Assembly (NCBI GenBank): GCA_016709725.1
Contig: JADJMG010000007.1
Coordinates: 222,258 to 286,257 of the forward strand
Reading direction: 5' to 3'
Source: Bacteroidota bacterium
GTDB taxonomy: Bacteria; Bacteroidota; Bacteroidia; AKYH767-A; OLB10
DNA length: 64,000 nt
Part shown: positions 33,608-33,680 of the stretch, piece by piece
Layout: every line of letters begins with the position of its first letter
Numbering within the stretch: position 1 is the first letter of the stretch
Program-made: the position numbers and the translations under genes
Notes under the pieces: model-generated
Database searches by the model: none
Seen by the model: the letters and a program-made list of their open reading frames with translations, nothing else
What the model was told of the DNA's origin: nothing

Positions 33608-33680
33608 TTTGCGTCCCGATAGCTATCGGGATTAATATTGCGCAGCCTTAGCGGCTTTGCGTCCCGATAGCTATCGGGAT
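33608..33680. repeat. Two direct copies of ttttgcgTCCCGATAGCTATCGGGAtt, each containing an 18-bp perfect palindrome. A third palindrome copy is at 59127-59144.
   Basis: Exact palindrome at 33614-33631 and at 33662-33679. Immediately followed by the tandem repeat gcgagaaaaattag x2. Confidence 0.8.

Follow-up and report, generated by a model that had tools for sequence, protein, structure and literature searches.

The 18-bp perfect palindrome TCCCGATAGCTATCGGGA (P hereafter) belongs to a family that is the cis-partner of stand-alone GIY-YIG nuclease genes of the SLX1/UPF0213 type, about 90 residues long, and the association is tight and reciprocal. Comparison of sequences makes it reasonably likely that P is a hairpin family spread throughout the Bacteroidota and linked in cis to this nuclease, that its gene-bearing units sit beside tRNA or tmRNA genes, and that the copies in the window, by which we mean the whole 64-kb stretch of DNA analysed here, are orphans and selfish passengers.

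Copies of P in the window and in related strains

The window has about 36% G+C and a gene content typical of Bacteroidota. A first-pass annotation had claimed three exact copies of P, and an exact-match search of the window reproduced the coordinates of all three (P1, P2 and P3; Table 1). Its description of their surroundings is also correct: P1 and P2 lie 48 bp apart from start to start, have tttgcg on the left and tt on the right in common and are followed by the tandem repeat gcgagaaaaatta x2, with a period of 13; P3 lies in the tRNA-Lys repeat region, with (ggagaata)x2 directly before it. When up to 3 mismatches are allowed, the window gives 4 matches to P against 0.01 expected from shuffled sequence. 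The fourth, TCCCGATTACTATCGTGA, may be a decayed copy, an assignment that is tentative because it does not match the family core CCGAWAGCTWTCGG within 2 mismatches; in the window, the core is found in the three exact copies only.

All three exact copies are intergenic. P1 and P2 are bordered by an acyltransferase gene, whose start at 33464 is the call in public assemblies, mapped to the window through the assembly coordinates, and by the terminator that belongs to a lipoprotein gene (33997-34860, minus strand). The distance from tRNA-Lys (59635-59708, minus strand) downstream to P3, which is set amid duplicated modules, is about 490 nt. In single-stranded form, P makes a hairpin of -6.4 kcal/mol whose stem has 7 bp and whose loop is AGCT. 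Neither an iterative HMM search nor a six-frame hmmsearch --max (best E 0.68) found a significant GIY-YIG ORF or remnant in the window. The snippet QKIKKMRSIRFA in the repeat 59038-59094 / 59505-59561 was considered as a nuclease remnant and rejected, since its match to GIY-YIG is insignificant. As the window has no GIY-YIG gene, its three copies of P are orphans, and they are most likely stray ones rather than the binding site of a regulator.

Table 1. Copies of P and associated features in the window
Feature	Position	Strand	Observation
P copy 1 (P1), orphan	33614..33631	.	exact match; kept in all six strain variants L201-L206
P copy 2 (P2), orphan	33662..33679	.	exact match; direct repeat TTGCG as flanks
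P copy 3 (P3), orphan	59127..59144	.	exact match; variable DNA downstream of tRNA-Lys
Probable decayed P copy (tentative)	43229..43246	.	3 mismatches; intergenic, short-repeat region
188-nt block (junk words, P2 and AT-rich stretch)	33632..33819	.	present or absent among strains
Empty-site paralog ccttagcgcctttgcgag	33810..33827	-	word surrounding P2, minus P

Strains of the window's own species differ at the first of these sites. In strain L206, the 188-nt block is absent and P2 with it, the neighbouring genes are identical, and the alignment reads gtgtagcttttgcg[P]cgctaagtatggg at the site of the block; beyond this indel there are few point differences over about 540 aligned bases. The indel starts exactly at the right edge of P1 and has P at one end only. 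P2 itself occupies a filled site, ccttagcggctTTGCG[P]TTGCGag (33646-33686), of which the window also holds an uninterrupted, inverted paralog (Table 1). This pair suggests that P2 was inserted into its site together with a 5-bp duplication, with the qualification that paralogs are compared here and not orthologs.

In a sister species (77% protein identity), we found no P around the orthologous gene of the tRNA-Lys locus (loci L253-L258). In relatives, tRNA-Lys is an integration hotspot, and a tyrosine-integrase island is present there in L254 and L255. In the window, the 3' end of tRNA-Lys is duplicated near P3. We considered this duplicate as a decayed nuclease cassette; the integrase island of the relatives speaks against this, and the duplicate is better explained as ordinary att-site debris. 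The approximately 140 nt directly downstream of tRNA-Lys (59495-59634, minus strand) contain a terminator and hairpins and are conserved in the sister species, and part of them is duplicated in the window (repeats 59038-59094 and 59505-59561); this conserved stretch could be a small RNA or an att region.

The window contains further short repeats and hairpins. Downstream of tRNA-Pro (44773-44847), the segment 44149-44730 (minus strand) consists of four tandem units of about 121-132 nt, each with a pseudo T-arm/acceptor fragment of tRNA-Pro (ccagatcggcggagccaatctgggccactccg) whose T loop is replaced, plus terminator-like hairpins; this debris is in the same style as the nuclease cassettes described below, without P. 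The hairpin word ggagtccagaaYaaMgtSgcggactc occurs twice (58992-59057 and 59330-59395), and one copy appears inserted in the repeated module ccattcgg|agcgagatgggtc, which makes it another type of hairpin insertion there. Three unrelated intergenic regions (32792-32836, 51756-51800 and 54299-54343) share a 45-nt word with many ACGGAT/GCGGAT motifs (AGAACACGGATGACNCGGAT...), and similar words with cacggat adjoin P elsewhere, as in L008. The 41-nt segments 43315-43355 and 54096-54136 form an inverted pair, 80% complementary and centred on the hairpin TCGCGAAGCCTCGCGA. A single ORF of 2494 residues extends over 21301-28785 (+).

Distribution of P across the Bacteroidota

Exact P was found in at least 120 stretches when 185,579 species were scanned, each represented by a single genome. 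Among the matches listed, 117 of 120 are labelled Bacteroidota, and they come from the orders Flavobacteriales, Chitinophagales, Cytophagales, Sphingobacteriales and Bacteroidales, and also from Saprospiraceae; the remaining three are labelled 'uncultured bacterium', 'metagenome' and, in one MAG contig that we suspect is mis-binned, Variovorax paradoxus. By chance, about 9 exact matches would be expected over all phyla, as estimated from a collection of 596 billion bases. The flanks of P are unrelated from genome to genome. We considered whether P is one of many common perfect palindromes and rejected this, as P alone among perfect palindromes recurs across loci.

P is therefore a phylum-wide element of the Bacteroidota and not a local duplication. 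The latter had been the first-pass annotation's fallback in case no copies lay elsewhere, and it gives way to the exact matches across the phylum with their unrelated flanks. P1 and P2 do have 8 flanking bases in common and may be local duplicates of each other; against the reading that the window's three copies arose by chance or by local duplication alone stand the expectation of 0.01 matches and the occurrence of the same sequence phylum-wide in unrelated contexts, and we regard its probability as negligible.

Relative to genes, P shows no bias of position or orientation. A placement was possible for 108 copies: the flanking genes are tandem for 59 of these, divergent for 14 and convergent for 14, and the other 21 (about 20%) fall in naive ORFs, many of them near ORF ends. 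An intrinsic terminator at P is not supported: there was no terminator call and no T-run in the flanks of 132 copies, and every type of intergenic region is occupied. This lack of a promoter-like or 3'-end-like preference rules out an ordinary terminator, and equally an operator.

The idea that a conserved dimeric transcription factor uses P as its operator deserves mention, as the first-pass annotation had proposed a dimeric HTH regulator, and we now regard it as highly improbable. It would account for the perfect dyad symmetry over 18 bp and for the pair P1 and P2, 48 bp apart, ahead of the acyltransferase gene, and a homodimer would select symmetric variation of its site. It is contradicted not only by the missing preference relative to gene starts, but also by the presence of P inside pseudo-copies of tRNA genes, in the loops of broken tRNAs, and inside a tmRNA call; the gene to which P is closely tied encodes a nuclease, not a regulator. 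In the window, as had been noted, no obvious regulator gene adjoins either site; P2 is dispensable in L206, whose neighbouring genes are identical; and P is absent at the orthologous tRNA-Lys locus in the sister-species loci that were fetched. P1 and P2 also lie upstream of the expected promoter region, a position to be read with the sigma-70 scan used, which does not cover Bacteroidota promoters.

The density of exact P is 3 per 64 kb in the window; at loci selected by protein, away from the gene, it is at most about one per 200 kb, and the copy number per genome looks modest. Among the matches listed, 114 of the 120 genome tiles selected by P are without a nuclease gene, so orphan copies are the rule. 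P is also present in 46 stretches of viral contigs, none of which has a GIY-YIG gene; phages as carriers of P were thus considered and found unsupported.

Small GIY-YIG genes, tRNA genes and the edges of P

The first clue to a partner gene came from three loci in which P lies inside partial copies of tRNA genes with a small ORF beside it. The association was then read in both directions. In the forward direction, six GIY-YIG ORFs are all that an iterative profile search recovered from the window and from 835 kb of DNA selected by P, each of them 7-429 bp from P and five of the six within 100 bp; the chance of such proximity is 0.02-0.09 per locus. In the reverse direction, 80 metagenome loci were picked by protein similarity alone (38-64% identity), and exact P was present in 31 of them and P with at most two mismatches in 65, with nearly all copies 10-300 bp from the GIY-YIG gene. 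At the loci seemingly without P, its place is taken by more diverged, yet symmetric relatives such as CCCCGAAAGCTTTCGGGG. The family core CCGAWAGCTWTCGG lies within -300 to +120 nt of 88 of 97 GIY-YIG genes, at a density of 2.37 per kb near these genes versus 0.17 per kb elsewhere, and its most frequent offset is 5-9 nt past the stop codon.

The partner ORFs encode 80-95 amino acids and consist of the GIY-YIG catalytic domain only (Pfam PF01541). In profile comparison with solved structures, the partner protein matches 1zg2 (E 8e-12) and 1ywl (E 1.5e-9); the ranking places UPF0213 BH0048/EF2693 best, followed by SLX1, with I-TevI and UvrC lower, and the match to TIGR01453 is far under the cut-off. 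On the strength of these best structure matches, we place the partner ORFs in the prokaryotic Slx1-like branch (PMC1564403); the match concerns the partner gene in other genomes and nothing in the window. In the literature we found no description of P or of a link between GIY-YIG, tRNA and Bacteroidetes; as coverage was incomplete, an earlier description is possible.

The tRNA genes adjoining a nuclease gene are all co-oriented with it, and one unit adjoins a tmRNA gene. Two arrangements are found. In type A, the order is a 5' fragment of the tRNA carrying P in the D loop, the nuclease gene and the intact tRNA. In type B, the intact tRNA with its terminator comes first, followed by the nuclease gene, a 3' tRNA fragment with P in the T or variable loop, and the same terminator again. 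Complete units have P-bearing fragments on either side of the gene, and tandem arrays also occur. Of 57 copies of P mapped on the adjacent intact tRNA, 35 take the place of 3 nt, 8 of 4 nt and 9 of 5 nt; the D loop is hit 29 times, the T loop 15, the variable loop 7 and the anticodon loop 6, in at least 18 distinct combinations of tRNA and loop, as counted from the mapping table.

Two observations accompany these units. A tmRNA gene in L129 (3329-3713) has a copy of P (3571-3588) within it and yet reaches 107 bits with Rfam RF00023; the insert may thus be tolerated by a structured RNA gene. In pseudo-tRNAs by the nuclease gene, loops are also replaced by other hairpins, namely tcccgacATGTAATgtcggga, tcccgacTGTAAACgtcggga and cctgtctgccgacaggcagg (L033 7750-7809; L109, minus strand, about 4380-4560); the first two have TCCCGA arms in common with P, and the third resembles palindromes that lie beside P in L031 and L074.

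P varies symmetrically. In variants with two mismatches, both arms are mostly altered together (CCCC..GGGG, TTCC..GGAA, TGCC..GGCA, ..GAAAGCTTTC.. and ..GATAATTATC..), and TCCCGAAAGCTTTCGGGA and CCCCGAAAGCTTTCGGGG are also among the symmetric forms. The variants follow the nuclease clades in part, and diverged clades bear diverged symmetric variants. Strict co-evolution of variant and clade was considered and rejected, as the match is only partial: canonical P is found across most nuclease clades and two different variants can flank one gene, so co-evolution is loose. The symmetric variation fits either recognition of half-sites by a dimer or passage through a fold-back form, with one arm serving as template for the second or correcting it.

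The flanks of 132 copies were profiled. Away from tRNA genes, a flank stem of at least 6, which places P at the tip of a larger hairpin, is found in 11 copies against 2.0 in the control, and a flanking direct repeat of at least 4, which places P inside short tandem repeats, in 10 against 1.2; most copies have neither. There is a weak symmetric preference for Y-N-R / Y-N-R, T is rare at -1 and A is rare at +1, and the most frequent flank pair is G at -1 with T at +1 (31 of 132 copies). A fixed target-site duplication was considered and rejected: direct repeats are enriched, yet in only about 10% of copies, they are absent in 84 of 132, and where present their length ranges from 3 to 11. The edges of P coincide with rearrangement breakpoints. 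In two independent comparisons, homology ends exactly at the edge of P: one is the window against L206, and the other is L130 against L127 and L131, where in L130 the left flank of a T-loop copy of P is swapped for the 3' end of an unrelated ORF.

These edges bear on another possibility, namely that the GIY-YIG cassettes cross over at P, as at an att-like site, and that P alone is immobile, orphans being excision footprints (P x P) or landing pads. This is unlikely in our judgement, although it agrees with several features of the units: cassettes are often bounded by P on either side (L089, L128, L129, L142, L160, L182 and L183), tandem GIY-P-GIY-P arrays look like cassette arrays (L133, L169 and L190), and flanks are exchanged exactly at the edges of P. 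It is difficult to reconcile with the gene units lying almost only beside tRNA or tmRNA genes and the orphans lying in arbitrary intergenic sites, hairpin tips and short tandem repeats, with the occurrence of P-like inserts in two or three loops of one pseudo-tRNA, or with the 188-nt indel of the window, only one end of which carries P.

Selection by the host for an RNA hairpin also has to be weighed, in which P would be an element of processing, stability or insulation and would, in the cassettes, keep the broken tRNA from being folded or processed. The fold of P is stable and its symmetric variants keep pairing; in type A units, P would sit in the transcript from the putative promoter of the tRNA gene, ahead of the nuclease ORF; and the frequent pair of G at -1 and T at +1 would add a G-U pair. 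Conservation, however, extends to the central AGCT and the stem sequence, beyond what pairing alone needs, and the missing T-run after P means that it is not an intrinsic terminator. No Rfam 15 family matches P, the gathering score being reached by tRNA and tmRNA only, and the Rfam hits around P1 and P2 are at chance level only. Many copies lie between convergent genes or distant from transcription signals, and the breakpoints at the edges of P are left unexplained. We consider the RNA hairpin quite improbable.

Proposed mechanism and comparison with known systems

Under the reading that we favour, a hairpin family with a nuclease as its cis-partner, the steps may be as follows: First, a structure-specific GIY-YIG nuclease would cut hairpin or cruciform DNA. 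Second, P would be copied or pasted into breaks at hairpin loops, and, by passing through a fold-back form, would keep its two arms identical. Orphan copies would then be by-products that remain fragile sites, and the copies in the window would be selfish passengers and local rearrangement hotspots rather than regulatory sites. GIY-YIG enzymes are hydrolytic; thus, P could be copied only with the help of ligation or repair. Nor does any one known transposition chemistry fit, as duplications are inconsistent and, in the tRNA copies, P replaces bases and duplicates none.

A bolder version is that the 18-nt hairpin is itself mobile and is cut and pasted in trans by the structure-specific, SLX1-like nuclease into the loops of other hairpins, which we put forward tentatively and hold to be doubtful. 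If true, it would be the smallest mobile DNA known, and repeated rounds of such movement, in which related hairpin words take part, would give rise to the repetitive DNA between genes and to the broken tRNA copies of Bacteroidota.

To our knowledge, stand-alone SLX1-like (UPF0213) nucleases are widespread in bacteria and have no established function. For one large UPF0213-like branch, there is now a link both to tRNA and tmRNA genes and to a defined partner in DNA, namely an invariant palindrome that forms a hairpin, and this link makes it testable whether an SLX1-like enzyme cuts or moves the P hairpin. Part of the tRNA-gene debris of Bacteroidota, and of their odd intergenic DNA made up of words, may find its explanation here. 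For annotation, P and its variants are best read as markers of strain-level rearrangement and not as operators.

GIY-YIG genes among tRNA genes have a precedent in phage T4, where the gene of SegB, a free-standing GIY-YIG homing endonuclease, is located in the tRNA gene cluster (PMC2330249). Genes of the SegB type and the P-linked genes are alike in that both are GIY-YIG genes among tRNA genes that behave as selfish cassettes. Seg enzymes and I-TevI, however, have a separate DNA-binding domain and a long asymmetric site, whereas the P-linked ORFs are a bare catalytic domain and nearer to SLX1/UPF0213. We know of no hairpin insert or tRNA-fragment duplication at Seg genes.

SLX1 cuts branched and hairpin-like DNA, and a palindrome as partner thus fits the SLX1 relationship. 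For bacterial Slx1-like proteins, we know of no reported cis-element, mobility or association with tRNA genes. SLX1 and the prokaryotic Slx1-like URI proteins (PMC1564403; PDB 1zg2, 1ywl) are the best sequence matches of the partner protein, and the fusion, in prokaryotes, of an Slx1-like domain with a tRNA Gm18 (D-loop) methyltransferase (PMC1564403) hints at a link to tRNA.

Short hairpins that spread into non-coding DNA are also known as the Rickettsia palindromic elements, the GC clusters of yeast mitochondria and the organelle palindromes of Volvox (PMC4478555, PMC2670323). Like P, they enter even structured RNA genes and encode no transposase of their own; unlike P, they are 30-150 bp long, lineage-specific and untied to a GIY-YIG gene or to tRNA loops. 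At P, we found neither the terminal inverted repeats around an internal segment nor the fixed-length duplication of a MITE, the element being the 18-bp palindrome alone.

The closest parallel is the REP/REPIN and RAYT (TnpA-REP) system of Proteobacteria. Here too, short hairpin palindromes are dispersed in extragenic DNA, most copies are orphans, a single small nuclease-type gene is flanked by the palindrome, and variants partly track the clade of the enzyme. The first-pass annotation had offered a REP-like element as its second reading; the dispersed and mostly extragenic palindrome agrees with this, but membership of the REP family does not hold. REP and BIME elements have a conserved GTAG or CGTC tetranucleotide at one end (PMC3733652), and the flank profile of 132 copies of P has no such head. 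RAYT is an HUH Y1 transposase of the IS200/IS605 type, whereas the gene flanked by P is a PF01541 GIY-YIG gene, SLX1/UPF0213-like. REPs are species-specific, whereas the sequence of P, a perfect 18-bp palindrome seemingly of low copy number, is common to a phylum, and its gene units, unlike REP/RAYT, are locked to tRNA and tmRNA genes. As P fails on the head motif, the enzyme family and species specificity, it works like REP but is not one, and it would add a second, mechanistically different pair of palindrome and nuclease beside REP/RAYT.
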